20,390 bases of DNA, taken from the IMG/VR virus record IMGVR_UViG_2579778982_000025, positions 1 through 20,390 of that record; one strand, 5' to 3'. Both the position numbers and the translations under genes were made by a program. Below the pieces are notes generated by a model. It saw nothing but the letters and a program-made list of their open reading frames with translations, was not told the origin of the DNA and ran no database searches. This document shows, one piece after another, positions 1-17,232 of this stretch (position 1 is the first letter of the stretch; each line of letters starts with the position of its first letter). Source of the DNA: a virus (lineage: Duplodnaviria; Heunggongvirae; Uroviricota; Caudoviricetes).

Positions 1-456
1 AGACTCAGCAAAATTGCTGATAACACAGGTAAGCTGGTTGATGAGACGAAAAAACGCATTGGCCCCGGTGATATTGTCTTTAAGAACCTGCCCCGCGCAC
101 TTGCTGTTCGTGGAGAGTGGCAGGAGCGGAAGATTGCGCAGGTCAGTAAGCCTGCCCCCGCAATTACTATCACACCCGTGGTTCCGGCTCCGCTGCCTCC
201 GGCGCTGGTCCCTGTTGTTGCGGCCAGCTCCCGCCCGGTGGCGGAGGCTATACGATCGTCAGTGGCATCAGTTCCTGCAAATTCCCGTAACCGGGAGCCT
301 GTTGCCTCCGGATTTGGCGGTGAAATTCATGTTCATCTGCATAACGTTGTTACACAGAATCCCCGCGAACTGGCGAAACTGGTCGGTGAAATGGTCAGGG
401 CAGAAATGGAACGGCGCGCCCGTGCCGGACGTGGCAGTTTTTACGATAAAGATTGA
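1..456 (+). CDS. phage tail protein, C-terminal part (probable tail tape measure protein; 5' end lies outside the window)
   Basis: Frame 1 is open from position 1 to TGA at 454-456; the ORF track lists only the Met-initiated tail 178..456. Pro/Ala-rich stretch then a charged C-terminus. Sits directly upstream of a gpU-like tail gene, as the tape measure does in P2-type tail modules. Identity is from position and composition only. Confidence 0.45.
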   Translation, partial: RLSKIADNTGKLVDETKKRIGPGDIVFKNLPRALAVRGEWQERKIAQVSKPAPAITITPVVPAPLPPALVPVVAASSRPVAEAIRSSVASVPANSRNREPVASGFGGEIHVHLHNVVTQNPRELAKLVGEMVRAEMERRARAGRGSFYDKD

Positions 457-462
457 GGAGTC

Positions 463-957
463 ATGGCCATGATGATGATCTACGGCATGTTTGTTTTTGA
501 GCTGCGCACATTGCCGCATCAGCAGTTACAGCAAAACAAAAGCTGGCGGCATGTGAAAAATGAGCGCGTAAACCGCTCAGCAAGCTGGCAGTATATCGGT
601 GCAGGTGATGATCGCATCGTGCTTTCTGGCGTGCTTTATCCTGAAATTACAGGTGGCGAAGTGTCGCTTTCGCTGCTGACCACGCAGGCATATACAGGAC
701 GCCCCTGGCCTCTGATTGATGGTGTCGGGCAGATTTACGGCATGTATGTCCTGACCGGAACGAATACGACCCGTTCCGAGTTTGATCGCTACGGTAAGGC
801 GAAAAAGATAGAATTTTCACTGACACTTGAACGCTGTGATGAGGATTTGCGGGAGCGCCTGCAATCCTCATCATTCAGCGATATGCTGTCCGGCTTCAAA
901 GATAAGGTGACATCATCTCTTAACAGCGCGGCCAGTTCAGTTAAAGGGATGTTCTGA
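463..957 (+). CDS. phage tail protein, P2 gpU-like
   Basis: 164-aa ORF, N-terminus MMMIYGMFVFELRTLPHQQLQ... resembles my recollection of the P2 gpU tail protein family. Starts 7 bp after the upstream stop. Exact start (463/469/472, consecutive ATGs) is uncertain. Confidence 0.65.
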   Translation: MAMMMIYGMFVFELRTLPHQQLQQNKSWRHVKNERVNRSASWQYIGAGDDRIVLSGVLYPEITGGEVSLSLLTTQAYTGRPWPLIDGVGQIYGMYVLTGTNTTRSEFDRYGKAKKIEFSLTLERCDEDLRERLQSSSFSDMLSGFKDKVTSSLNSAASSVKGMF

Positions 958-968
958 TTTAACACAAA

Positions 969-1005
969 AACCGCTAATGGTCAGATTAGCGGTTATTTTG
1001 TTTCC
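969..1005. terminator. bidirectional rho-independent terminator between gpU-like gene and invertase 1
   Basis: Perfect 10-bp stem aaccgctaat (969-978), loop ggtcag, attagcggtt (985-994), followed by attttgtttcc on the + strand and flanked by A/T on the other strand. Overlaps the invertase 1 stop codon. Confidence 0.6.
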
Positions 1006-1580
1006 TGACTCTTCTCAATTGTTCCGCTTGATTCTCCTGCGGGGTGGTAACGATAAATCGTCGATATACCAATGCCGTAAATTATTGCCAGTTGTTTTCT
1101 GTCGTGACCGTTTTTAATCAGCCTTGCTATTTGCTCATGCTGTTCTTTTGTCAGCTTCGGTCGACGTCCGCCTGTGCGCCCCCGTGCGCGCGCTGCCGCC
1201 AGTCCGGCCAGTGTACGTTCAACAATTAATTCACGTTCCATTTCAGCCAGGGCCCCCATCACGTGGAAGAAAAAACGCCCCATTGGAGAAGATGTATCTA
1301 TGCTGTCGGTCAGACTGCGAAAATTAATCCCTCGCTCCCGTAGTTCCCCGACGAGAGAAATCAGATGTTTCATGCTTCGCCCGAGGCGATCCAGTTTCCA
1401 GACAACCAGCGTGTCACCTTTTTGAAGGCGCTTTAAAGCGCGTTTTAATCCCGGTCGGTCTGTCTTTGTCCCGCTTAATTTATCTTCAAATATTTGTTCA
1501 CATCCTGCACAAACAAGAGCGTTTCGTTGCAGGTCTGTATTCTGGTCATTTGTTGATACCCTTACATAGCCAATCAGCAC
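993..1580 (-). CDS. serine recombinase, DNA invertase (Hin/Gin/Pin/Cin family), invertase 1
   Basis: Translation (M)LIGYVRVSTNDQNTDLQRNAL...VVWKLDRLGRS...GRFFFHVMGALAEMERELIVERT...GGRRPKL...STIYRYHPAG has the catalytic-Ser N-terminus and C-terminal HTH of Hin-family invertases. Preferred start is GTG at 1578-1580, preceded by GGGAG 7 nt upstream. The ORF track's 1598 start is a TTG with no RBS. The 5' end faces the left crossover site. Confidence 0.85.
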   Translation of the reverse strand: MLIGYVRVSTNDQNTDLQRNALVCAGCEQIFEDKLSGTKTDRPGLKRALKRLQKGDTLVVWKLDRLGRSMKHLISLVGELRERGINFRSLTDSIDTSSPMGRFFFHVMGALAEMERELIVERTLAGLAAARARGRTGGRRPKLTKEQHEQIARLIKNGHDRKQLAIIYGIGISTIYRYHPAGESSGTIEKSQETK

Positions 1581-1634
1581 ACTGAATCTCCCGTCCAAAA
1601 GCGCAAATCATGCCATGCAGGCCAGAAACGGCCA

Positions 1635-1660
1635 TTATCTAAAACCTCGGTTTACAGGAA
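1635..1660. repeat. left inversion crossover site (gix/hix-like, 12-bp half-sites around a TC core)
   Basis: ttatctaaaacc-tc-ggtttacaggaa. Its inverted partner at 4685-4710 (reverse complement ttctcaaaaacc-tc-ggtttgcaggaa) differs at 3 positions and has the same core dinucleotide. Matches the known architecture of Gin/Hin recombination sites. Confidence 0.8.
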
Positions 1661-2605
1661 ACGGTAAATCAGGCTTCTGGCGCATTACAGAAAAAACAGA
1701 ACGGCGCAGATATTCCAGGAAAAGATACCTTCACCAAAAATATTGGTGCCTGCCGCGCATATAGCGCATGGCTGAATATTGGTGGCAATAGTCAGACCTG
1801 GACAACCGCACAATTCATTTCGTGGCTGGAGAGTCAGGGGGCATTTAACCATCCTTACTGGATGTGCAAAGGCTCATGGGCTTATGCAAACAATAAGGTC
1901 ATTACAGATACAGGTTGTGGAAATATTTGTCTTGCAGGTGCTGTGGTGGAAGTTATTGGCACTCGCGGCGCAATGACCATACGCGTTACTACGCCGAGTA
2001 CATCCAGCGGTGGCGGAATTACTAACGCTCAATTCACCTATATTAATCATGGTGATGCTTATGCTCCTGGCTGGCGACGAGACTACAACACGAAAAACCA
2101 GCAGCCTGCATTTGCTTTAGGGCAAACAGGAAGCAGGGTTGCAAATGATAAAGCTGTTGGCTGGAACTGGAATAGCGGCGTTTATGATGCAGATATCAGT
2201 GGCGCATCGACATTAATCCTCCACTTTAATATGAATGCGGGGAGTTGCCCTGCTGTACAGTTCCGCGTGAATTATAAAAACGGCGGTATTTTTTATCGTT
2301 CAGCGCGTGATGGTTATGGATTTGAGGCTGACTGGTCAGAGTTTTACACCACGACCCGCAAACCCTCTGCGGGAGATGTTGGTGCATACACGCAGGCAGA
2401 ATGTAACTCAAGGTTTATTACAGGTATTCGCCTTGGCGGTCTGTCATCTGTTCAGACATGGAATGGTCCCGGCTGGTCTGACAGGTCAGGTTATGTCGTT
2501 ACGGGTTCAGTTAACGGAAACCGTGATGAATTAATTGATACAACTCAGGCAAGGCCAATTCAGTATTGCATTAATGGGACGTGGTATAACGCGGGGAGTA
2601 TTTAA
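1643..2605 (+). CDS. tail fibre protein, variable C-terminal module (no constant N-terminal region or start codon in this orientation)
   Basis: Frame is open from just after TAA (1640-1642) to TAA at 2603-2605 and begins inside the crossover site with codons NLGLQETVN. First ATG is only at 1862. C-terminus ...IQYCINGTWYNAGSI is typical of Mu S / P1 S / e14 Stf-type fibre tips. Followed by a Tfa gene 2 bp downstream. Confidence 0.7.
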   Translation, partial: NLGLQETVNQASGALQKKQNGADIPGKDTFTKNIGACRAYSAWLNIGGNSQTWTTAQFISWLESQGAFNHPYWMCKGSWAYANNKVITDTGCGNICLAGAVVEVIGTRGAMTIRVTTPSTSSGGGITNAQFTYINHGDAYAPGWRRDYNTKNQQPAFALGQTGSRVANDKAVGWNWNSGVYDADISGASTLILHFNMNAGSCPAVQFRVNYKNGGIFYRSARDGYGFEADWSEFYTTTRKPSAGDVGAYTQAECNSRFITGIRLGGLSSVQTWNGPGWSDRSGYVVTGSVNGNRDELIDTTQARPIQYCINGTWYNAGSI

Positions 2606-2607
2606 CG

Positions 2608-3141
2608 ATGATGCACTTAAAAAACATTACTGCTGGCAACCCTAAAACAAAAGAGCAATACCAGCTAACGAAACAATTTAACATCAAATGGCTTTATTCA
2701 GAGGATGGAAAAAACTGGTATGAGGAACAAAAGAATTTCCAGCCAGACACTTTGAAAATGGTCTATGACCATAACGGCGTTATTATTTGTATTGAAAAGG
2801 ATGTTTCAGCAATTAATCCGGAAGGCGCAAGCGTCGTTGAATTACCTGATATTACAGCAAATCGCCGGGCTGATATTTCGGGTAAATGGATGTTCAAAGA
2901 TGGCGTAGTGATAAAGCGAACTTATACCGAGGAGGAACAGAGGCAGCAGGCAGAGAATGAAAAGCAAAGCCTGTTGCAACTTGTCAGGGATAAAACCCAG
3001 CTATGGGACTCACAGCTACGGCTGGGTATCATTTCCGACGAGAATAAACAAAAATTAACCGAGTGGATGCTCTATGCGCAGAAGGTCGAATCCACAGACA
3101 CCTCCAGCCTGCCTGTAACGTTTCCAGAACAACCAGAATGA
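2608..3141 (+). CDS. tfa: tail fibre assembly protein (Tfa / Mu U-like chaperone)
   Basis: 177 aa, [40 protein letters not shown]...[22 protein letters not shown]; conserved Tfa-like N-terminal region. Immediately downstream of the fibre module. Confidence 0.8.
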   Translation: MMHLKNITAGNPKTKEQYQLTKQFNIKWLYSEDGKNWYEEQKNFQPDTLKMVYDHNGVIICIEKDVSAINPEGASVVELPDITANRRADISGKWMFKDGVVIKRTYTEEEQRQQAENEKQSLLQLVRDKTQLWDSQLRLGIISDENKQKLTEWMLYAQKVESTDTSSLPVTFPEQPE

Positions 3142-3144
3142 AAC

Positions 3145-3172
3145 AAGGCCCGCTATCGGGCCTTAATTTTTA
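3145..3172. terminator. bidirectional terminator at the centre of the invertible segment
   Basis: aaggcccg-ctat-cgggcctt hairpin followed by aattttta, between the two convergent tfa genes. Confidence 0.6.
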
Positions 3173-3700
3173 TTCAGGCTTTTGTGGCCATTCAGGATTT
3201 GCCGTATCCACACGGCTGACCAGAACACTATAGCGTTCCCATGACTCCAGTCGTGCGCGTTCCTCATCCGTCGCCATATTCAGCCTGACAGCGCGTTCCA
3301 GTGGCTGAATAACGTTTTCTGCTTCGGAAAGTAACGCGGCCTTTTGTGATTCGGCCTGTTGTTGTTGCTCGTCTGCCGTATAAATCCGTTTAACCACAGC
3401 TCCGTCCTTAAACATCCACTTCCCTGAATCATCGGCACGACGATTGGCTGTTATATCTGGAATCTCAACGACGCTAAAGCCTTCGGGATTAAGCGTTGAG
3501 GCATCTTTGGTTATGGCAACAATAATATTATTTTCGTCGTATACAATCTTTATGGTGTCGTCCTGAAAGTTATTTACTTCTTCATACCAGTTTTTACCGT
3601 CTTCGGACCATAACCAGATAACATCAAAATTCTTTGTTAGCTGATATTGTTCTTTCGTTTTAGGATTTCCAGACTTAATATTTTTTAAATGCTGCATCAT
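3170..3700 (-). CDS. tfa: tail fibre assembly protein, alternative copy (Tfa')
   Basis: 176 aa, [41 protein letters not shown]...; paralogous to 2608..3141, with a divergent C-terminal third as expected for alternative host-range cassettes. Confidence 0.8.
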
Positions 3701-4765
3701 TTACACCTGTGCGACGTTATACCATGTGCCATTGATGTATTTTTGTATTGGCCTGAAGATGGCTTCATCATCGCCATCTACTTCACCAATGATTCTTAAT
3801 CCGGTAATTGCGTGTCCGGCTTTTTCATAACGACCACCACGCGCCATCAATTGAACAACACGTGTGCCAAGTCGGACATCTCTCACATAGCGTGAGTCAA
3901 AATTGCCATAATTGTCGGGAATAACTTGCGCACCACAAAGCCAGTTACCGTTATTATCCATGTACGCCTGACCATCGGTGCCATTGGCTGTCCTTGAGTT
4001 ATTAATCATGTAGATGCCAAATTGCTTGTTCCCCAGTCCACCTATCATGAACTTTCGGTCGGCGTGATTCTGGCGAAGTAACGCCTGAGCGCTATCAGTG
4101 TTAACTATATTTTTCCCAAAGATAGCGTTGTTATCGCGCATCTGAATCCACATACCATTACTGCTGTTAATAGCAAAACGGTCTGAAAGTGTCTCCCCTG
4201 AAACATTAAGACCACGCCCCATCGAAACAGCGCCAGTAGCGTTATTAATCCATAATGGCCTTAATCCGTTATAAGTCCCCATGTTGTCACCGGAGTTTGT
4301 CAACATGAAGTATGTATCTGAACCATCATTACGAATAAAGAATCCGTAATTACCATAAGCAATACGTAGGCCGTTTGCTGATTTTGATATGACTTCGCCA
4401 TTTACAATGGCATTGACAAGAACATACAAAGCATCCCATTTAAGATTCATCAGGTCTTTTGTTGTGGTACTTTGTTTGCTTCTCCATTTGAAATATTCAT
4501 TGCCGTTGTCGCCTGTCTCAAACCACATGTATGAATCAGTGTCACCATCGGCATCATTTTTAAATCCAATCTTCGCCCAGTCAGTATTTCGAATCCAAGC
4601 AAGGATTGAGTCATTTTCAAAAGTAAGCCCACCGGACAAGGTATCGCCATTCTTTTGCACGGCGTTACCAACCCTGTTTACCGTTTCCTGCAAACCGAGG
4701 TTTTTGAGAATTGCCTCTGTGTCGTCTGGACGATATTTTTTTCCGCTTTTAGCAACAATCGCGGT
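3701..4765 (-). CDS. tail fibre protein, alternative variable C-terminal module, fused to a 24-codon remnant of a constant region
   Basis: Minus-strand frame is open from the stop at 4766-4768 down to 3701. Passes through the right crossover site with the same NLGLQETVN codons as the left module. Only 24 codons (TAIVAKSGKKYRPDDTEAILKNLG) lie outside the site. C-terminus ...IQKYINGTWYNVAQV. The ORF-track start at 4693 is a TTG inside the crossover site. Confidence 0.7.
   Translation of the reverse strand, partial: TAIVAKSGKKYRPDDTEAILKNLGLQETVNRVGNAVQKNGDTLSGGLTFENDSILAWIRNTDWAKIGFKNDADGDTDSYMWFETGDNGNEYFKWRSKQSTTTKDLMNLKWDALYVLVNAIVNGEVISKSANGLRIAYGNYGFFIRNDGSDTYFMLTNSGDNMGTYNGLRPLWINNATGAVSMGRGLNVSGETLSDRFAINSSNGMWIQMRDNNAIFGKNIVNTDSAQALLRQNHADRKFMIGGLGNKQFGIYMINNSRTANGTDGQAYMDNNGNWLCGAQVIPDNYGNFDSRYVRDVRLGTRVVQLMARGGRYEKAGHAITGLRIIGEVDGDDEAIFRPIQKYINGTWYNVAQV
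4685..4710. repeat. right inversion crossover site (inverted partner of 1635-1660)
   Basis: Plus strand ttcctgcaaaccgaggtttttgagaa; reverse complement aligns to the left site with 3 mismatches. Confidence 0.8.
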
Positions 4766-4774
4766 TTAGAAAGT

Positions 4775-5329
4775 ATGCAATATGGTTATGCGAGGGTGTC
4801 AACTTTTGACCAGAATTTGGAATTACAACTGGAGGCGCTCAGGAGTTCAGGATGTGACCGGATTTTTGAAGATAAAATATCCGGTGCTAAATCAAAACGA
4901 CCAGGACTTGATAAGCTACTGAAGGTGTTACGTCCGGGCGATACGGTTATTGTCTGGAAGCTGGACCGAATGGGGCGTTCTCTGATTCATCTTGTTGATT
5001 TACTTAACCATTTTTTATCAAACAACATTGAGTTTATTTCGATTACGGAAGGGATAAAAATTAGCACTTCAATTGGCCGCTTTGCCTACACGATGCTGAG
5101 TGCAGTCGCAGAGATGGAGCGGGAAAATATGATTGAAAGAACGCGTGCAGGATTGGCGGTGGCAAGGGCTAACGGCAGGATAGGAGGACGCCGCTCAAAG
5201 CTGGCACCAGAGCAATGGGAACAGATCGGAAGGCTTATTGCGAATGGTGTTTCACGTAAGCGGATAGCGATTATCTTCGATGTTACCTTATCCACGCTTT
5301 ACCGCAGGTTTCCGGCTGGGAATCATTGA
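4775..5329 (+). CDS. serine recombinase (invertase/resolvase family), invertase 2
   Basis: MQYGYARVSTFDQNLELQLEAL...VIVWKLDRMGRS...AVAEMERENMIERT...GGRRSKL...STLYRRFPAG, 184 aa. ATG at 4775; the ORF-track 4655 start is an unsupported N-terminal extension. Candidate promoter TTGCCT (4711-4716) - N17 - TATTTT abuts the right crossover site. Clearly divergent in sequence from invertase 1. Confidence 0.8.
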   Translation: MQYGYARVSTFDQNLELQLEALRSSGCDRIFEDKISGAKSKRPGLDKLLKVLRPGDTVIVWKLDRMGRSLIHLVDLLNHFLSNNIEFISITEGIKISTSIGRFAYTMLSAVAEMERENMIERTRAGLAVARANGRIGGRRSKLAPEQWEQIGRLIANGVSRKRIAIIFDVTLSTLYRRFPAGNH

Positions 5330-5473: not shown

Positions 5474-5511
5474 TTATGATTGTGGGTGTCTGGTTGGAAA
5501 CTGACCAGATA

Positions 5512-5630
5512 TGGAAACAAAAAGCCCGCAGATAAATCTGCGGGCTTCTTGCGACATCCACGGAAAACCAACAACAACAATCCATGGGCGCCTCGACAAC
5601 TCCCATTATACGTTGGTTTTCCGTGGACGC
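5512..5630 (-). ncRNA. candidate CopA-like antisense RNA of the repA leader (IncFII-type copy-number control)
   Basis: Two hairpins in the repA leader. A long stem-loop has a 15-bp stem ccacggaaaaccaac (5558-5572) / gttggttttccgtgg (5612-5626) and a ~39-nt loop. On the minus strand it is followed by aagcccgcaga-ttta-tctgcgggctt (5522-5547) and then a T-run (complement of 5509-5520), a rho-independent terminator oriented for minus-strand transcription. The RNA ends are not mapped. Confidence 0.45.
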
Positions 5631-5642
5631 AAGAGCGAACAT

Positions 5643-6491
5643 ATGGATAGACCAATGCCGTCTCTACGTTCCGCTTACGTTTGTAATTTGTCGCCGGAGT
5701 TCCAGCCTCCAAAGCACCATACGCACAAGCTGCCGCTGGTGTTATCTGATGCTTTACAGCGCATTAATGGGCGTGATCTTACGTGTGAGGTTGCGTTCTA
5801 CGTTAATCAACCGTCAGAGCGGAAGCGCCGGATAAACGAGCATCGTCGTCGGGCGATTAATGCTGTGATCGCTGCGATTTTGCACCATGTAAACATCATT
5901 TCTAAGCGGGTTCTGGCTAGTGCTGAGGCGTTGGCTGATTTTTGCGGCCTGTCTACCGTATCCGAAGCTGGGAACAAGTCTATAACGCGCTGTACAAGGG
6001 CGTTGTCGCAACTGAAAGCGTTAGGGTTTATTGATTATGAACGTCGCTGGGATCGGGTGAATAAACAGTATTGGCCAGCGAAAATAGAGATTCGTGATCA
6101 ACTGCTGGAAACCGTTGGTATTACTGAACAAGCATGGAGACGTGCGGTTAGCCAGAAACTTAATTACTTCAATGCGAAGAATAGCGAACGGCTTAAAAAA
6201 GCGATAACGGAGGCTGATTATAAGCGTATTGTTATTCAGGAGCAGATGGAGAATGTATGGCGTCAGAGGAAGACGGCCAGAGAGATAAAGGCAAAACAGA
6301 AAGCAGCGGAGAGAGCTGCGCGTCTTGTTCGGGAAAAGGGAGAGGCCGAACTTCGTCATCAAATCACTAGAGAGGTTAGCCAGGAATTTGCTGATGGCAT
6401 GTATCCTGGAGCTGACCTTGCATATTTACGATCCCTCGTTGAGCAGCGTTATAACAGGTTAAGAAAGACCTGGAAATCACTCCAACATTAA
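5643..6491 (+). CDS. repA: plasmid replication initiator RepA (IncFII RepA1-like)
   Basis: ...GNKSITRCTRALSQLKALGFIDYERRWD... resembles the R100/R1 RepA1 motif (..KLSITRATRALTFLSELGLITYQ..), with an Arg/Lys-rich C-terminal half. Preceded by antisense-RNA-like hairpins and followed by a DnaA box plus AT-rich region. Start at ATG 5643 (MDRPMPSLRS...) is preferred because the ORF-track start at 5511 lies inside the antisense terminator hairpin. An IncFII-type leader peptide may exist in another frame ending at 5648-5650, but I cannot place its start. Confidence 0.75.
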   Translation: MDRPMPSLRSAYVCNLSPEFQPPKHHTHKLPLVLSDALQRINGRDLTCEVAFYVNQPSERKRRINEHRRRAINAVIAAILHHVNIISKRVLASAEALADFCGLSTVSEAGNKSITRCTRALSQLKALGFIDYERRWDRVNKQYWPAKIEIRDQLLETVGITEQAWRRAVSQKLNYFNAKNSERLKKAITEADYKRIVIQEQMENVWRQRKTAREIKAKQKAAERAARLVREKGEAELRHQITREVSQEFADGMYPGADLAYLRSLVEQRYNRLRKTWKSLQH

Positions 6492-7945: not shown

Positions 7946-7953
7946 GATTGAGC

Positions 7954-8301
7954 ATGTGGACGGTACTTTTTAGCCAGCGATTTGACGACTGGCTAAATGA
8001 GCAAGAAGACGCTCTTCAGGAAAAGGTTTTGGCTGATTTGAAAAAGCTACAGGTTTACGGACCTGAGTTACCCAGGCCATATGCCGATACCGTAAAAGGT
8101 TCTCGGTACAAAAATATGAAAGAGCTTCGCGTTCAGTTTTCTGGCCGTCCGATAAGAGCCTTTTATGCGTTCGATCCGATTCGCCGGGCCATCGTTCTTT
8201 GTGCAGGAGACAAAAGTAACGATAAACGGTTTTATGAAAAACTGGTGCGTATAGCTGAGGATGAGTTTGCAGCACATCTGAACACACTGGAGAGCAAGTA
8301 A
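7954..8301 (+). CDS. higB: type II toxin, RelE/ParE superfamily (HigB-like, phage Gp49-type addiction-module killer)
   Basis: MWTVLFSQRFDDWLNEQEDALQEKVLADLKKLQVYGPELPRPYADTVKGSRYKNMKELRVQFSGRPIRAFYAFDPIRRAIVLCAGDKSNDKRFYEKL.... Toxin-first order. Stop TAA overlaps the ATG of the downstream HTH gene by 1 nt. The ORF-track start 7948 is a TTG; ATG 7954 has the RBS. Confidence 0.7.
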   Translation: MWTVLFSQRFDDWLNEQEDALQEKVLADLKKLQVYGPELPRPYADTVKGSRYKNMKELRVQFSGRPIRAFYAFDPIRRAIVLCAGDKSNDKRFYEKLVRIAEDEFAAHLNTLESK

Positions 8302-8600
8302 TGAGAACATTAGATGAGGTGATTGCCAGCCGTTCACCTGAAAGCCAGGCGCGAATTAAAGAAATGGCAGATGAGATGATTCTTGAGGTCGGCTTGCAGA
8401 TGATGCGTGAAGAACTCCAGTTATCACAAAAACAGGTTGCTGAGGCGATGGGTATAAGCCAGCCAGCAGTAACAAAGCTGGAGCAGCGCGGAAATGATTT
8501 AAAGCTGGCGACGTTAAAACGTTACGTTGAAGCTATGGGAGGCAAATTAAGCCTGGATGTTGAGCTTCCCACAGGAAAGCGAGTAGCGTTCCATGTCTAA
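8301..8600 (+). CDS. higA: type II antitoxin, XRE-family HTH (HigA-like)
   Basis: 99 aa with central HTH (LSQKQVAEAMGISQPAVTKLEQ). Translationally coupled to the upstream toxin gene. Confidence 0.7.
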   Translation: MRTLDEVIASRSPESQARIKEMADEMILEVGLQMMREELQLSQKQVAEAMGISQPAVTKLEQRGNDLKLATLKRYVEAMGGKLSLDVELPTGKRVAFHV

Positions 8601-11188: not shown

Positions 11189-11216
11189 AAGCGCCCAAAT
11201 CGGGCGCTTTGTTTTA
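11189..11216. terminator. bidirectional terminator
   Basis: aagcgccc-aaatc-gggcgctt followed by tgtttt, between convergent genes. Confidence 0.6.
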
Positions 11217-12356
11217 TGGTTTTGCACCTGCGGCCAGTTTATCCGCCGATATCTTTATCAGTTCCTGTAGTGTCCTGGCTGGTAGGTTTGCATCCAGTAC
11301 GCTGAGTATGCTGCTGTGATCTGCCTGGTCGACTACTTTGCCTGTCGGTGGTAGTAGCTTGAGCTGAGGATTCAGGTTTTCGTCAAAGCTGATCAGTGCT
11401 CTGGCGTTTCTGAGCAGATCAAGAAGTAAGGCTGATATCACATTTTCCTGAGTCATTGCTGGCAGATTTAGCGCCGCTTTGGTTTTCCCTGTTGCCTTGT
11501 CAAACTCCTTGATTAGTTCCTTCCTGTAGTTCGGTTCCGTTAATAGCCGATTATGCTCTGTTGCCGCGCGGATAATCGTTTTTTCCTGGTACAGTCGTTT
11601 AGCCAGATCACGCTCGTACTGTGTTTTTAACACGCTGCTGATAGCGTTAAAGGCTTCAATGTAGGCCAGCTTGATATCTTTCACGCTTGGACCGTCGATG
11701 CTCTCCATGAGTAAGGTAAATCCGTCTTTTGTCATGCGATAGATTGTTATTTCGCGGTCGCTTCCTTCCAGCGGTCGTTGCTCTTTAAAGAAGTGACGCG
11801 CCGCAGCCGTGCGAGGAATGCGTAGCGCATCGATGGCCATAACGATGGAATTGTTTGTGGTGCTGAATGCCTGGGCAACATCGGCTGAGGTTGTGAGTGG
11901 CTCGTTGTTGCACACTTTAATGTAAAACATCGGTTTGGCGTTGAGCGTATCGACAACCTCACGAGCATTGTTTGGCGAGACGGTAACGGTCGCGGCCGTT
12001 TGCGCGTTCTGGTTGAAGTAGCAGTCTTCCAGCCGTTCGAACACATCCCACGCTTGGTTAGTTTCAAGCATTTTGGCGTGACGTGCAGCCCCGCGTTCGG
12101 TCCAGAGGATTAGTTTTCTAACGTTATTCGCGATGGTTTGAAAATCTCTTAAAGAGATTTTCAAACTTTGGAGATCTGTACCTTTTACAACTATGAAATG
12201 TTTTCCTTCTGTAAACCGGGACTTATTACGGTGGTGATTTCTGTGAAGACATTCGACGCTACAGCCATATAGTTTGGCAAGCAGCTCCGTGGTGATAACG
12301 GGGATCTGGTTATGCAGGATAGGCTGTAGGGTGTTAACGGTCGGAAGCGTTTTCAT
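11214..12356 (-). CDS. phage antirepressor-like protein (ORF6N/Rha-type N-terminal DNA-binding domains, long C-terminal region)
   Basis: 380 aa. N-terminal ...ITTELLAKLYGCSVECLHRNHHRNKSRFTEGKHFIVVKG... resembles ORF6N-type antirepressor domains; a second similar segment ...TTSADVAQAFSTTNNSIVMAIDAL follows. Family assignment is from memory of motifs only. Confidence 0.55.
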   Translation of the reverse strand: MKTLPTVNTLQPILHNQIPVITTELLAKLYGCSVECLHRNHHRNKSRFTEGKHFIVVKGTDLQSLKISLRDFQTIANNVRKLILWTERGAARHAKMLETNQAWDVFERLEDCYFNQNAQTAATVTVSPNNAREVVDTLNAKPMFYIKVCNNEPLTTSADVAQAFSTTNNSIVMAIDALRIPRTAAARHFFKEQRPLEGSDREITIYRMTKDGFTLLMESIDGPSVKDIKLAYIEAFNAISSVLKTQYERDLAKRLYQEKTIIRAATEHNRLLTEPNYRKELIKEFDKATGKTKAALNLPAMTQENVISALLLDLLRNARALISFDENLNPQLKLLPPTGKVVDQADHSSILSVLDANLPARTLQELIKISADKLAAGAKP

Positions 12357-12640
12357 TTTGCACCTCCCATAACTACTTTGGTTACGAGGGAGATTTTTGC
12401 GTCAGAAACAGCGTTATCGTTGCTGGCGATGCGCATAGCTTCGCGCTCGATGATTTCAGCCAGGCGGAATTTATCGGCGTATGAGGCTTTCTTGAGAAGG
12501 ATCTTTACGAGGTTGACGTAATAGTCATGGGGTAAGTTTGTCATGATGATAGTTCCAGTTTTGATATTGGAATAATCACCACCGCTGACGCCAATCAGTG
12601 AGGTGGTGAGACGTACAGGGTTGGCGTAACCGGTCATCAT
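12353..12640 (-). CDS. hypothetical protein
   Basis: Stop overlaps the start of the antirepressor-like gene in an ATGA arrangement, suggesting translational coupling. Start ambiguous between 12640 and an internal ATG (MTNLPHD...). Confidence 0.4.
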   Translation of the reverse strand: MMTGYANPVRLTTSLIGVSGGDYSNIKTGTIIMTNLPHDYYVNLVKILLKKASYADKFRLAEIIEREAMRIASNDNAVSDAKISLVTKVVMGGAK

Positions 12641-12844
12641 GATACCCGGCGAGCCTTACGGCTCCCCCGCACGCCCCACCATAATTCGGGTGTAGCTGTG
12701 CTTTACGCATAAAAAAACCGCTAACGCGGTATGCGCCATGATGATTATCGGGACGCCAATCCCGACCGTAGATTTTGCTACGGCTCGGAAAGTGTCCACC
12801 AATGGCGCATTTATGTCAATACAGCGGGATTTTAACAGACTAAA

Positions 12845-12994: not shown

Positions 12995-13534
12995 ATGATT
13001 GAACTGTCAAAAAACTCATGTTTTTCAACCATTCACCTAATGATCATAAAAGAACTTAGGCTAGAAAGAGGTGTGCATCAAGGAGTACTGGCTCAAGCTG
13101 CTGGAAAAACACCAAACGCATGGACAAAGATAGAGAACGGGCAGTCTGTATTAACAGTTGACGCCCTTTTTGGTGCTTTCACAGCCCTTAATATTACTCC
13201 AGTGAATTTCATGTCATTGGTAGAAAATCTTATTCCCGAATTTAACCGTTATGGTTACTTCTTTTTCCCTGGAACAATCAGTCAGGACGAGGATAACCTT
13301 TTACCTCTGATGCTGCGTTACTTTAATAGCAAGGGGTTTGAAGCATTGAGAAATAGGCCATTCGAAAGAGTTAGCATTAGCTCAATGGGATTCTCATTTG
13401 GGGGCGGCATCCCTGTTACTCCAACTGCTGTAATGTATTGTTGCGATGAAGCATATAGAAATTGGGTCGATAACGGTGCTGATGTGGATAATCGAGATTA
13501 TCTGGAGTCATCAACAGGTCGTGGACTGTTTTAA
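12995..13534 (+). CDS. HTH (XRE-like) domain protein with C-terminal domain of unknown function
   Basis: 179 aa. N-terminal LMIIKELRLERGVHQGVLAQAAGKTPNAWTKIENGQSV is HTH-like. RBS GGGGA upstream of ATG 12995. Confidence 0.55.
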   Translation: MIELSKNSCFSTIHLMIIKELRLERGVHQGVLAQAAGKTPNAWTKIENGQSVLTVDALFGAFTALNITPVNFMSLVENLIPEFNRYGYFFFPGTISQDEDNLLPLMLRYFNSKGFEALRNRPFERVSISSMGFSFGGGIPVTPTAVMYCCDEAYRNWVDNGADVDNRDYLESSTGRGLF

Positions 13535-13553
13535 TGAGTGAAGAAACAAAAAA

Positions 13554-13580
13554 ACCGTCCTATTGAGGACGGTCCTTTCG
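13554..13580 (+). terminator. weak rho-independent terminator
   Basis: accgtcc-tattga-ggacggt followed by cctttcg, preceded by an A-run. Confidence 0.35.
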
Positions 13581-13726
13581 TGCTGATCGGATTCGCGGTC
13601 CTTTCAGCATTACGTTGTTGTATAAACAACCACGCAAGCACAAGCAGCAAATTGATTTTACTCAAAAGGTAATAATAGTCCACTATTATACATCAAAAAA
13701 TTGTGGTTCTTGTTGTGTCAGCAAAC

Positions 13727-13739
13727 TCACAGATTGTGG
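13727..13739. promoter_or_regulatory. operator-like palindrome TCACA-GAT-TGTGG
   Basis: Same motif class; flanking aaactcac matches the site at 16685. Confidence 0.35.
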
Positions 13740-13971
13740 GTAGGTTACTGATTTTGTGAAAATAAACTGTTTTTTTCGTTTAATTTCTTTCCTATTACTA
13801 ATCTTAAAATAATCGTAAAATACCTGTGGACCTTCCCGCCGATTCGCACCCGGGCACCGACTTTAGGGGAGGATTTCCTGTTGCCGTACATGCAAGCACA
13901 AGCAGCCGTGCTTGCTCTCGCGTTGTTTTCGTCGGTGGGGATGTCGTGAAACGGCCTGTAAGGGCCACACA

Positions 13972-14094
13972 ATGAAAAAATACTACATGTGTATTTTTAT
14001 CGTTGTTACTGGAGCTTTGTTTACGCCACATGGGGAGGGTTGGAAGATTACTGATAACGCTCTGAATGTGACGATAAACATTAGCAGCAAGTAG
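13972..14094 (+). CDS. small hydrophobic peptide (40 aa), candidate small membrane protein or type I toxin
   Basis: MKKYYMCIFIVVTGALFTPHGEGWKITDNALNVTINISSK. RBS AGGG 7 nt upstream. Strong terminator immediately downstream. Confidence 0.4.
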   Translation: MKKYYMCIFIVVTGALFTPHGEGWKITDNALNVTINISSK

Positions 14095-14099
14095 CGATT

Positions 14100-14123
14100 A
14101 GGCCCCTTCGGGGGCCTTTTTTA
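14100..14123 (+). terminator. rho-independent terminator
   Basis: aggcccc-ttcg-ggggcct followed by tttttta. Confidence 0.7.
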
Positions 14124-14132
14124 TGGTTGAAT

Positions 14133-14282
14133 TTAAACGCTTGAGCGCATTAAGCCTTTCAGAACTGCTTCACGTACCCATTCTGGCCTGGTGGATAGCA
14201 GGGCAAATAAGCGACCAGCTTGCAGCCGTTTGAGGTCGGTTAGACGAGTTTTCAGTAACCGTGTATATTGTTGTTCGGACAT
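14133..14282 (-). CDS. small hypothetical protein (49 aa)
   Basis: MSEQQYTRLLKTRLTDLKRLQAGRLFALL...; ATG 14282 preceded by AAGGGGA. Co-oriented with and downstream of the partition genes. Confidence 0.35.
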   Translation of the reverse strand: MSEQQYTRLLKTRLTDLKRLQAGRLFALLSTRPEWVREAVLKGLMRSSV

Positions 14283-14344
14283 AACAAATTCCCCTTGTTG
14301 TGTCGCGACGGCCAACAGTTGGCGCTGGAGGCCGTCACCTTCTC

Positions 14345-15305: not shown

Positions 15306-15420
15306 GTGTTTGGTTATATAATTCTATAAATCTATATTTATAGAACGAGGTAAGCATAACCAACTTTTTGGCGGATGAAAAGTGTTTTATATAATTATAT
15401 AAATCTATAATCATATAAGC
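15306..15420. repeat. AT-rich palindromic repeat cluster upstream of parA (candidate centromere / partition operator)
   Basis: Two blocks, ttatataattctataaatctatatttataga (15314-15344) and ttttatataattatataaatctataatcatata (15385-15417), built from TATAAATCTATA and TATATAATTATA units. Confidence 0.45.
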
Positions 15421-15907: not shown

Positions 15908-16564
15908 TCATAACCAGTTGACAACACTAACTACGCGGCCAAGAACTTTATAACGCTTAAATTCCTCGTTATTCAGATGATTAGTGTTCATTTCAGCGTC
16001 CCTTTCGGTTGACAGCATAACAGCATTGTCACCCGGTATGACTCTACAGTGCCTCAAAACAACCAGGCCATTTCTGTCTTCAAGGGCATAGATCCCCTCA
16101 TGAATCTCTGTATCGTCTGTATCAATCAGGACTTGGGAGCCAGGGGATATTGTTGGTGACATTAACTCATCGTTGCTCTGGAGAACTGACAGAGACGATG
16201 GGTTGATGTTCTTGCTTCGTAGAATCTCCTGTTCTATCGCCAGCACTGGCTTTTCTCCGGCGTGCGATGCTATGTCATTTTTTATAGCTACAAGCCCAGG
16301 AATAACAGGAGCGTTAGTATTCTGGGGTGGGAACGGGTTATCTGTTAAGCACGCGATATAAGGCGCTGATGCTTTCAGGGCGTGCGCGATTTTCTTGATG
16401 GCAGGTATAGATGGTTGTCTTAATCCGGCCTCATAGTTCTGCAAGGTGCTTAAGCCTATTCCAGTGACTTGCTGGAGATCTCCGGCAGTCATGCCGGATT
16501 GTTTCCGTAGAGTCTGAATGCGCAGACCTATTTCTTTCTTGATGTTCTCGTCGTTGCTTTTCAT
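15908..16564 (-). CDS. CI/LexA-like phage repressor (N-terminal HTH, C-terminal S24 peptidase-like autocleavage domain)
   Basis: 218 aa. N-terminal HTH (LRKQSGMTAGDLQQVTGIGLSTLQNYEAG). C-terminal region with MSPTISPGSQVLIDT and KVLGRVVSVV resembles the Ser/Lys dyad regions of LexA and lambda CI. Divergent from a Cro-like gene, with operators between. Confidence 0.8.
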   Translation of the reverse strand: MKSNDENIKKEIGLRIQTLRKQSGMTAGDLQQVTGIGLSTLQNYEAGLRQPSIPAIKKIAHALKASAPYIACLTDNPFPPQNTNAPVIPGLVAIKNDIASHAGEKPVLAIEQEILRSKNINPSSLSVLQSNDELMSPTISPGSQVLIDTDDTEIHEGIYALEDRNGLVVLRHCRVIPGDNAVMLSTERDAEMNTNHLNNEEFKRYKVLGRVVSVVNWL

Positions 16565-16602: not shown

Positions 16603-16718
16603 CCACATTTAGTGGTTTTCACATGGTAAGACGAGAGGTGGACCACAAATAGAAGGTTATTTTTTGTTTCGCCCATTGAAAAACTCACGATATGTGGTTT
16701 TAATACCACATATCGTGG
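16603..16718. promoter_or_regulatory. immunity-region operators and PR-like promoter
   Basis: Operator-like sites CCACA-TTT-AGTGG (16603-16615), TCACG-ATA-TGTGG (16685-16697) and CCACA-TAT-CGTGG (16706-16718). The last two are inverted copies of each other, 21 bp centre to centre. They bracket a strong promoter TTGAAA (16676-16681) - 17 bp - TTTAAT (16699-16704) reading into the Cro-like gene. Confidence 0.6.
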
Positions 16719-16737
16719 TTTAACTGGAGTTCGTTAA

Positions 16738-17232
16738 ATGACCTTTCAGGAGTGGGTTGACGAAAATGGAGGCCAAATTGGTGTTGCCAGAAAGTTTGGC
16801 TTTACGTCATCACTGATTGGTGCCTGGTATCGCTTCGAGAGATTCCCTCGTGCGGATAACCTGACGCTGCTGGTGGCGTATTCGGAAGGCCGGATTAACG
16901 TCCAGCAATGGGCGGCAGATTTTGCCGAACGTCAGCGCCAGCGTAGCGATGGCACATCGGTTCGGCAGAACAAGATCAAAGGGAATCTCCCTGTTAACTG
17001 CTTATCAAGGCTGAAAGCGGTTTTCTCTGAGCTGGGGATGCCTGCGGAGCGTTGCAATCTACGCGGTCCGCGATTCATTGCTCGCTGGAAACACTCACAC
17101 GTAACCGTTTCAGAGGTTCGTGATGCGATTGCCGTGCTGGAGCTTAAGAATAAAGATTCCAGCGATATCGAGCTGATTCATAAGGAGATTAGCAACGCCC
17201 GGCGTTCAGCACTTGGGAGGCTTGAGGAATGA
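16738..17232 (+). CDS. Cro/YdaS-like HTH regulator with C-terminal extension
   Basis: N-terminus ...GGQIGVARKFGFTSSLIGAWYRFERFPRADNLTLLVAYSEGRINVQ resembles Cro/YdaS-type HTH proteins. RBS GGAG (16726-16729). First gene of the operon divergent from the repressor. Confidence 0.6.
   Translation: MTFQEWVDENGGQIGVARKFGFTSSLIGAWYRFERFPRADNLTLLVAYSEGRINVQQWAADFAERQRQRSDGTSVRQNKIKGNLPVNCLSRLKAVFSELGMPAERCNLRGPRFIARWKHSHVTVSEVRDAIAVLELKNKDSSDIELIHKEISNARRSALGRLEE

Follow-up and report, generated by a model that had tools for sequence, protein, structure and literature searches.

A diverged timPR-type toxin-antitoxin locus beside the par operon of a phage-plasmid

A ryfA-type RNA encoding a TimP-like peptide

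The window analyzed here, a 20,390-nucleotide stretch of viral DNA (IMG/VR record IMGVR_UViG_2579778982_000025, Caudoviricetes), carries at positions 13545–14125 a locus related to timPR, a toxin-antitoxin (TA) system of enterobacterial chromosomes. An initial annotation, made from the sequence letters, had read the locus as a type I toxin-like gene for a small hydrophobic peptide. An Rfam scan of the whole window matched 13826–14122 on the plus strand to ryfA (RF00126) over the full length of the model (positions 1–296 of 296), with a score of 144.7 bits (gathering score, 80; E=1.1e-37); no Rfam family besides ryfA was matched within 13545–14125. RyfA is the mRNA of timP, an experimentally characterized type I toxin (PMC7667032, PMC11228461, PMC13000454), and Salmonella TimP is a 38-amino-acid toxic inner-membrane protein whose translation is repressed by a divergently encoded small RNA (sRNA), TimR (PMC7667032). 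The RefSeq annotation of E. coli K-12 now includes timR, ryfA and timP. Together, the ryfA match, a full-length alignment to the TimP protein model and a homolog of TimR bear out the type I toxin-like reading.

The timP mRNA of the window (13826–14122, +) is 297 nt long, with a fold z-score of -4.0. Eleven scanned sister loci from plasmids and phages score 129–145 bits in Rfam, and chromosomal ryfA copies score 274–317 bits, as compared to 145 for the window copy. Because blastn, its distant mode included, finds no link from the locus to chromosomal ryfA, the two are joined only by the covariance model and the peptide profile.

The open reading frame (ORF) within this RNA spans 13972–14094 (+) and comprises 40 codons and a TAG stop (MKKYYMCIFIVVTGALFTPHGEGWKITDNALNVTINISSK), with a hydrophobic N-terminus. 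It runs from an ATG at 13972 to the TAG at 14092–14094, is preceded by a ribosome-binding site (AAGGG at 13960–13964, 7 nt 5' of the ATG), and is followed by an intrinsic terminator of the mRNA (14100–14123, +), also seen in the Rfam alignment, with a G+C-rich hairpin (stem 14100–14117, 7 bp, 6 of them G-C) before a T-run (TTTTTT); the 40-codon ORF, its ribosome-binding site and its canonical terminator are thus all present as first described. The ORF starts at position +147 of the RNA, and at +145 in Salmonella (PMC7667032). In NCBIfam, the sole match of the peptide is NF040796 (toxic_TimP), aligned over residues 1–40 of 40 (E=1.2e-4). Fourteen alignment columns are invariant with K-12 TimP (MKIRCFCIVLIVSGALLTEVNNNRSLSGDNLLVVNNLQSSK); common to both peptides are an N-terminal MK..C/Y.CI..IV.GAL.T and a C-terminal ..SSK, and mean Kyte-Doolittle hydropathy over residues 4–17 is 2.09 here and 2.34 in K-12.

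Conservation of the ORF across relatives, named at the outset as a way to check the gene, is seen in all 17 plasmid and phage loci examined (the window and 16 others), where the frame is intact. In plasmid pO145_122715_2 (O145) an exact one-codon in-frame deletion keeps the frame, giving a peptide that begins MRKYVCIL. The peptide has no Pfam or PHROGs family, and a homolog search of a protein collection returned one identical 40-amino-acid cluster only, ORFs this small being evidently under-represented there. When genome contigs were searched by tblastn, no locus passed with an alignment headed by the window peptide; with K-12 TimP placed first, the search gave 11 chromosomal loci from Escherichia, Shigella and Citrobacter.

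A divergent TimR-like RNA and its pairing site

Divergently oriented to timP, the gene for a TimR-like antitoxin sRNA of ~104 nt lies at 13545–13648 (-); the RNA begins with a single-stranded 5' recognition end, continues through two internal hairpins and closes with a terminator, and its fold z-score is -5.55. We set its 5' end (G13648) by homology to the annotated 5' end of K-12 timR (GCUG...). The TimR body aligns with TimR of K-12 (annotated), Shigella, E. whittamii and Citrobacter. All of them keep the central stem-loop, in which two pairs differ on both sides when the plasmid clade is compared with the chromosomal one. The intrinsic terminator (13545–13581, -; GGACCGUCCUC-AAUA-GGACGG followed by U7) was identified from the fold and the inverted repeat. 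It may also serve a helix-turn-helix (HTH) gene that lies upstream on the plus strand, and it is retained in variants without that gene. The initial annotation had suggested a search for an antisense or overlapping sRNA: a TimR homolog is indeed found, as a divergent gene that does not overlap timP.

The 5' recognition sequence of TimR (13631–13648, -; 5'-GCUGCUUGUGCUUGCGUG-3') is complementary to CAUGCAAGCACAAGCAGC in the timP leader (13889–13906, +), a target made up of the 5' arm and loop of the second leader stem-loop (SL2). The resulting helix has 18 nt with a single G.U pair, is the longest that the leader can form with the minus strand of the 750 nt upstream, and places the target at leader positions +64 to +81, as in Salmonella and E. 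coli (PMC7667032, PMC11228461). A repeated motif already noted in this region, GCAAGCACAAGCAGC, can therefore be recognized as an antitoxin-target pair, the site of TimR–timP pairing; it occurs in exactly two copies, the second at 13892–13906 as described and the first at 13634–13648, one nucleotide from the 13633–13647 originally given. By chance, 0.06 matches to this 15-mer would be expected window-wide with two mismatches or fewer, and none of 100 shuffles reached two; the repeat grows to 18 nt when one G.U pair is allowed.

A helix of 18–21 nt is found at the same site in all 17 plasmid and phage loci, and the helix between the TimR 5' end and SL2 is also the longest leader complement in six of the seven chromosomal loci examined. 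The plasmid and phage loci fall into three alleles, with ~96–99%, ~83% and ~80% identity to the window, and the TimR site and the timP site change in step. Position 11 of the repeat changes from G to A in both partners in the ATCC 25922-type and strain-222-type loci, and position 13 changes from A to G in both partners in JE86. Two independent compensatory double changes in sister plasmids thus preserve TimR–timP pairing.

Structure of the timP leader

The initial annotation had assigned the ORF a leader of ~430 bp. The real leader is 146 nt long (13826–13971), and the rest of that region is taken up by the divergent sRNA gene and two promoters; mechanically called 75-amino-acid ORFs of the minus strand do overlap this region, which had been described as ORF-poor. 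We aligned six plasmid leaders with six chromosomal ones (K-12, two other Escherichia species and three Citrobacter) and scored the four stem-loops (SL1–SL4) and a pseudoknot: 93.3% of cells are paired across the 12 sequences, as compared to 34–44% when the 3' partners are slid.

All four elements lie on the plus strand. SL1 (13831–13872), placed by the Rfam alignment, consists of a lower stem (13831–13837 with 13866–13872) and an upper hairpin and is 88–91% paired. SL2 (13892–13915) has an 8-bp stem and an 8-nt loop and is 97.9% paired; its stem, GCAAGCAC (13892–13899) with GTGCTTGC (13908–13915), is the one singled out from the start, and it bears the TimR target. SL3 spans 13918–13949. SL4 (13953–13966) has 5 bp and a GUAA loop, and its 3' arm sequesters the Shine-Dalgarno sequence AAGGG (13960–13964).

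The pseudoknot joins site 1 in SL1 (CACCGAC, 13855–13861, +) to site 3 in the apical part of SL3 (GUCGGUG, 13931–13937). This 7-bp helix is 100% paired in 12 of 12 sequences, the minimum-free-energy fold finds it too, and double changes (UA to CG or the reverse, and AU to GC or the reverse) separate the plasmid clade from the chromosomal clade. In Salmonella the SL1–SL3 pseudoknot is essential for timP translation (PMC11228461). The interactions among leader sites 1–4 were defined in PMC13000454, according to which pairing of sites 2 and 4 frees the Shine-Dalgarno sequence and pairing of sites 1 and 2 locks an inactive conformation. Here, site 2 (GCCGU, 13883–13887, +) is complementary to site 4 in the 5' flank of SL4 (ACGGC, 13951–13955); the plasmid clade retains five of the six published site 2–4 pairs, with an overall 91.7% of cells paired.

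Promoters and palindromes

Both RNAs are preceded by candidate promoter elements. A putative timR promoter (13655–13682, -) comprises a -35 box TGGACT (13682–13677), a 16-nt spacer and a -10 box TAAAAT (13660–13655), and would start transcription at G13648; it comes from a consensus scan, and its distance to the TimR 5' end is as for the K-12 promoter TTGACA-17-GAGTAT. For timP, a putative -10 box read from the sequence (TAAAAT, 13816–13821, +) lies 5–7 nt 5' of the RNA start, and the variants have a -10-like hexamer at the equivalent position.

The putative timR -35 box is overlapped by a perfect 7+2+7 palindrome, TAATAGTCCACTATTA (13673–13688), which is unique in the window and is a possible operator. 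At this position the ATCC 25922-type and JE86-type variants have GAATAGTCCACTATTC, in which a change at each end preserves the symmetry; the right arm is missing from the strain-222 type. An operator-like palindrome had previously been pointed out at 13727 (CTCACA-gat-TGTGGG). We rejected it as an operator: its arms match at five of six positions, the region has 23 short imperfect palindromes of this kind, this one included, and it sits in the least conserved stretch of the locus.

When the window was compared with 11 other loci, divergence among the plasmid alleles proved very uneven. It falls mostly within 13650–13930, a stretch occupied by both promoters together with two-thirds of the timP leader at its 5' side; the TimR body with its terminator (13545–13630) and the 3' stretch 13930–14125 are nearly identical in all variants. 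This pattern would reflect either a recombination boundary within the leader or else an ORF and 3' end that are strongly constrained.

Distribution and relation to the chromosomal copy

The locus lies between a C4/isrK-antirepressor immunity region and a convergent parA operon, with genes for an IncFII-type RepA and a CI-like repressor in the vicinity. It was found in 72 of 5426 complete E. coli genomes, where 73 of its 74 places are on plasmids of ~47–51 kb, and also in six IMG/VR contigs and in three isolated Yersinia phages (vB_YpM_39, vB_YpM_41 and vB_YpM_44). Among PLSDB plasmid records, 60 have the locus and 61 the same par operon; timPR is thus in essentially every Escherichia plasmid with this par operon. 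Membership of the element in a pSLy3 group was considered and dropped, pSLy3 being of the SSU5 supergroup, and we leave the family unnamed. Phage vB_YpM_HQ103, considered as a relative, is an unrelated 32-kb phage of the Peduoviridae (PMC11177050).

Of 5426 E. coli genomes, all 5426 carry chromosomal timPR, which never occurs on a plasmid. Since every E. coli host has it, cells that carry the element hold two paralogous systems. Uninterrupted helices between chromosomal TimRs and plasmid timP reach only 6–9 nt, as compared to 18–21 nt for cognate pairs, and the duplex energy of K-12 TimR with window timP is -24.9 kcal/mol, as compared to -35.9 kcal/mol for the cognate pair. In RNAduplex, pairs could be told apart only when the TimR 5' end was set against the SL2 region, whole RNAs being uninformative. 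The two systems differ in recognition sequence, and host TimR is predicted not to cross-pair with plasmid timP.

Comparison with known type I systems

The module shares with chromosomal timPR of Salmonella and E. coli (PMC7667032, PMC11228461, PMC13000454) a divergent, non-overlapping gene pair; an mRNA of ~300 nt with a 146-nt SL1–SL4 leader, an SL4-trapped Shine-Dalgarno sequence, a 7-bp SL1–SL3 pseudoknot and site 2–4 complementarity; an 18-nt pairing of the TimR 5' end with SL2 at +64 to +81; a homologous TimR body; a peptide of 38–41 amino acids with a hydrophobic N-terminus; and intrinsic terminators on both RNAs. Unlike the chromosomal system, which lies between sseA and sseB, the window copy is on a phage-plasmid, scores 145 rather than about 315 bits in Rfam, has a different recognition sequence, and combines a weakened site 1–2 lock with an SL4 two pairs shorter. 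The distance from the TimR 5' end to the timP start also differs: the window has 178 nt, K-12 has 399 nt and the other chromosomal loci examined have 78–82 nt. The wider spacing of timR and ryfA in K-12 is explained by the Rfam IS128 RNA element that lies between them there.

A second point of reference is hok/sok of plasmid R1, likewise a plasmid-borne type I module with a small membrane toxin whose translation is blocked by mRNA structure and an antisense RNA; by analogy, it may serve as a functional model for the maintenance role proposed below. In hok/sok the Sok RNA is an overlapping cis-antisense RNA, there is a mok leader ORF, and fold-back inhibition goes together with 3' processing. 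The window module, by contrast, has no sequence or structural homology to hok/sok, and its antitoxin gene is non-overlapping and 178 nt apart. The only upstream ORF, at 13890–13949, was examined as a mok-like leader and rejected, its ATG being lost in sister variants. Membership of the Hok/Gef family was rejected on the same ground, together with the missing antitoxin overlap and the match to TimP as the sole peptide family. For timP, neither processing nor an upstream ORF is required, and the upstream ORF of Salmonella timP is dispensable (PMC11228461).

The layout is also like that of the E. coli type I systems tisB/istR-1, shoB/ohsC, zor/orz and dinQ/agrB, where an sRNA from a divergent gene likewise pairs with the leader of the toxin mRNA, far upstream of the ribosome-binding site; the sequences, in contrast, are unrelated. 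In addition, mRNAs of the tisB, shoB, zor and dinQ type depend for their activation on processing or on a ribosome standby site, and their toxins are without a signal-sequence-like N-terminus (PMC7667032, Discussion).

Identity, mechanism and possible role

We regard it as very probable, for both identity and molecular mechanism, that the locus forms a diverged and complete type I TA module of the timPR type on a ~48-kb phage-plasmid. Homology, anatomy and covariation are demonstrated in this analysis, and the mechanism is borrowed by analogy from the papers on the chromosomal system. The locus conforms to the RNA-level definition of timPR and to the structural features of SL1–SL4, the pseudoknot, the site 2–4 pairing and TimR, and its peptide falls short of the NCBIfam annotation threshold. 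It is a mobile, unannotated member of timPR, arguably a subfamily, and the kind of system is already known; full-text searches of the literature library used returned no paper tying timPR or ryfA to plasmids or phages.

A number of observations weigh against this identification. On NF040796 the peptide scores 22.2 bits, under the curated cut-off of 45 bits, as compared to 86.8 bits for K-12 TimP, and it is 35% identical to K-12 TimP. The 45-bit value is an annotation threshold for a model of the TimP subfamily and is no functional criterion; the score marks the window copy as an outlying subfamily. Substitutions in the ORF among the plasmid variants are few and all non-synonymous, the 3' part is invariant, and there is too little variation for a ratio of non-synonymous to synonymous change (dN/dS). 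In the leader, the inactive lock between sites 1 and 2 is broken at two of five pairs in six of six plasmid variants when read in the chromosomal register, a shifted 4-bp register (GGCA/UGCC) being available in five of the six; SL4 has 5 bp as against 7 bp in the chromosomal leaders, its two outer pairs being absent from the plasmid clade. With a weakened lock and a shorter SL4, the structural switch may work differently here.

The low NCBIfam score is likely also why the locus is unannotated in public records. No RefSeq or GenBank record examined annotates it, and none carries an RNA feature there; the unannotated gene is present in the quality-control strain E. coli ATCC 25922 as well as in the three isolated Yersinia phages. 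An annotation gap is thereby exposed, the gene having been missed in every public record examined.

In the proposed mechanism, a plus-strand promoter would produce the 297-nt timP mRNA, whose 146-nt leader would fold into SL1–SL4 with the Shine-Dalgarno sequence trapped by SL4. By analogy with Salmonella, translation of the TimP-like peptide would need the SL1–SL3 pseudoknot and a site 2–4 pairing that opens SL4. The peptide, whose hydrophobic N-terminus is of signal-anchor type, would be expected, like its relatives, to insert into the inner membrane, damage it and be toxic. A divergent promoter, 178 nt upstream, would give the ~104-nt TimR-like sRNA, and pairing of its 5' end with the 5' arm and loop of SL2 should destabilize the active fold and block translation.

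What the module does for the element is a more tentative matter. We infer that its most likely role is stabilization of the plasmid-prophage through post-segregational killing or growth arrest, a proposal in which our confidence stops somewhat short of even. It draws on the position of the module beside a par operon on a low-copy replicon, on the report that TimR has a lower stability than the timP mRNA (PMC7667032), and on the predicted insulation of the plasmid pair from the chromosomal TimR of every E. coli host. Counting against a maintenance role, deletion of timR at the native locus in Salmonella gives no growth inhibition (PMC7667032), and a par system and a HigB-like type II TA are on the element already. 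In addition, in three Salmonella relatives whose par genes are 81% identical, the slot is taken by a different ORF of 93 amino acids; in one such plasmid, of Salmonella Weltevreden (NZ_LN890526.1), no ryfA match lies between C4/isrK and par, and an unannotated 93-amino-acid ORF on the minus strand is found instead. In a more specific form, which we advance as a possibility and a shade more cautiously, the phage-plasmid copy may be a functionally specialized mobile branch of timPR: an addiction or competition module whose re-coded recognition sequence would insulate it from host TimR, and whose weaker lock and shorter SL4 would tune it to readier translation of the toxin once plasmid TimR is lost. 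If this is true, it would be the first natural setting where timPR has a selectable function; although the molecular control of timPR, an RNA switch with a pseudoknot, has been resolved in detail, the biological role of the chromosomal system is still not known (PMC7667032, Discussion). A diverged, complete and apparently insulated copy beside par genes provides a natural setting in which to test post-segregational killing or competition between phages. Its divergence also amounts to a natural mutagenesis of the RNA switch, in which the pseudoknot and the site 2–4 pairing are kept through compensatory changes and the site 1–2 lock is not.

Other explanations assign a different role to the same module, or a different nature to the locus. 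A working timPR might function not in addiction but in abortive infection or phage exclusion, or might be coupled to the lysis-lysogeny switch of the element itself, for example through a regulator at the timR promoter that lets TimP be made on induction. Such a role seems to us unlikely, though it deserves serious attention: the locus lies within the region for immunity and regulation, with the C4/isrK-antirepressor genes to one side of it and the CI-like repressor gene to the other; the palindrome over the timR -35 box keeps its symmetry in the ATCC 25922-type and JE86-type variants; and exclusion of phage T4 is reported for type I toxins such as hok/sok (as cited in PMC13000454). That palindrome, however, is unique in the window, is missing from strain-222-type variants and has no regulator linked to it, deletion of timPR in Salmonella has no effect on P22 infection (PMC7667032), and the location beside par favors maintenance. 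We consider it very improbable that the 297-nt RNA is a non-coding regulatory sRNA only, with an incidental small ORF. RyfA was first described as an sRNA, regulatory and virulence phenotypes have been reported for it in uropathogenic E. coli, avian pathogenic E. coli and Shigella (PMC8205139, PMC10664665, PMC13188913), and ORF variation in the plasmid clade is too low for dN/dS; yet start position and similar length of the ORF are kept between clades too diverged for blastn, one sister plasmid has an indel of exactly one codon, the peptide matches the TimP model over its full length, and in Salmonella a start-codon mutant is non-toxic though the RNA is retained (PMC7667032).

Decay raises a further concern, that the locus is a non-functional timPR remnant hitch-hiking on the phage-plasmid. 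An Rfam score less than half that of chromosomal copies (145 as against 274–317 bits), a peptide under the NCBIfam cut-off, and the weakening of the site 1–2 lock and of the outer SL4 pairs all point that way. Against it, all functional elements are intact; co-variation is seen in the TimR-target pair, in the pseudoknot and in the TimR stem-loop; the ORF is intact in 17 of 17 loci; and the module is in 60 plasmid records as compared to 61 with the par operon. A decaying remnant is, in our view, highly improbable. We give almost no credence to the idea that the real gene is a 75-amino-acid ORF of the minus strand (13745–13972 or 13804–14031) and that the plus-strand features are coincidental. 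Both of these ORFs appear in the mechanical ORF list, but neither has a Pfam or PHROG match or is annotated in any public record examined, the open stretches of the minus strand shift in length and frame between variants through 1–2-nt indels in the leader, and it is the plus-strand RNA that passes a curated covariance model. We rejected them as genes for want of family matches and of frames conserved between variants.

Genome context

The remaining features of the window concern the surroundings of the timPR-type module. Downstream of the par operon lies a small ORF (14133–14315, -) whose end is ~10 nt away from the timP terminator. Some records annotate it as the 49-amino-acid protein WP_000003577.1; the Salmonella relative has it too, in conserved form, and its match to phrog_22022 is weak. 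Just upstream of parA, 15311–15418 holds a cluster of AT-rich overlapping inverted repeats of the TTATATAA type, which is probably the par operator or centromere.

On the other side of the locus, a 179-amino-acid HTH gene (12995–13534, +) lies upstream of TimR and is absent from many sister elements; where it is absent, the C4/isrK region abuts the TimR terminator, which identifies the gene as a mosaic insertion. A C4 antisense RNA (81 bits) and an isrK RNA (70.9 bits), at 12599–12784 (-), lie directly upstream of an ORF6N/Rha antirepressor gene (11214–12356, -). This C4/isrK-antirepressor region looks like antirepressor control of the P1/P7 immI type.

The CI-like repressor gene (15908–16564, -) encodes HTH and S24 peptidase domains. 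Between it and a divergent operon, in the 16686–17232 region, a near-perfect 16+16 palindrome, CACGATATGTGGTTTT/AATACCACATATCGTG, at 16686–16717 is probably the main operator.

An IncFII-type repA gene is located at 5511–6491. Near it, an ORF for a Gp49/DUF891 toxin (HigB/RelE-like; 7948–8301, +) overlaps an ORF for an HTH antitoxin (8301–8600, +); a HigB-like toxin with an HTH antitoxin makes a probable type II TA, and thus a second addiction-type module. At the start of the window, 1–5329 holds tail-fiber and tail-fiber-assembly genes like those of Mu, P1 and D108, 92–96% identical to their counterparts, and a Gin/Cin-type serine invertase at 4655–5329; this is an invertible host-range segment common to otherwise unrelated phages.

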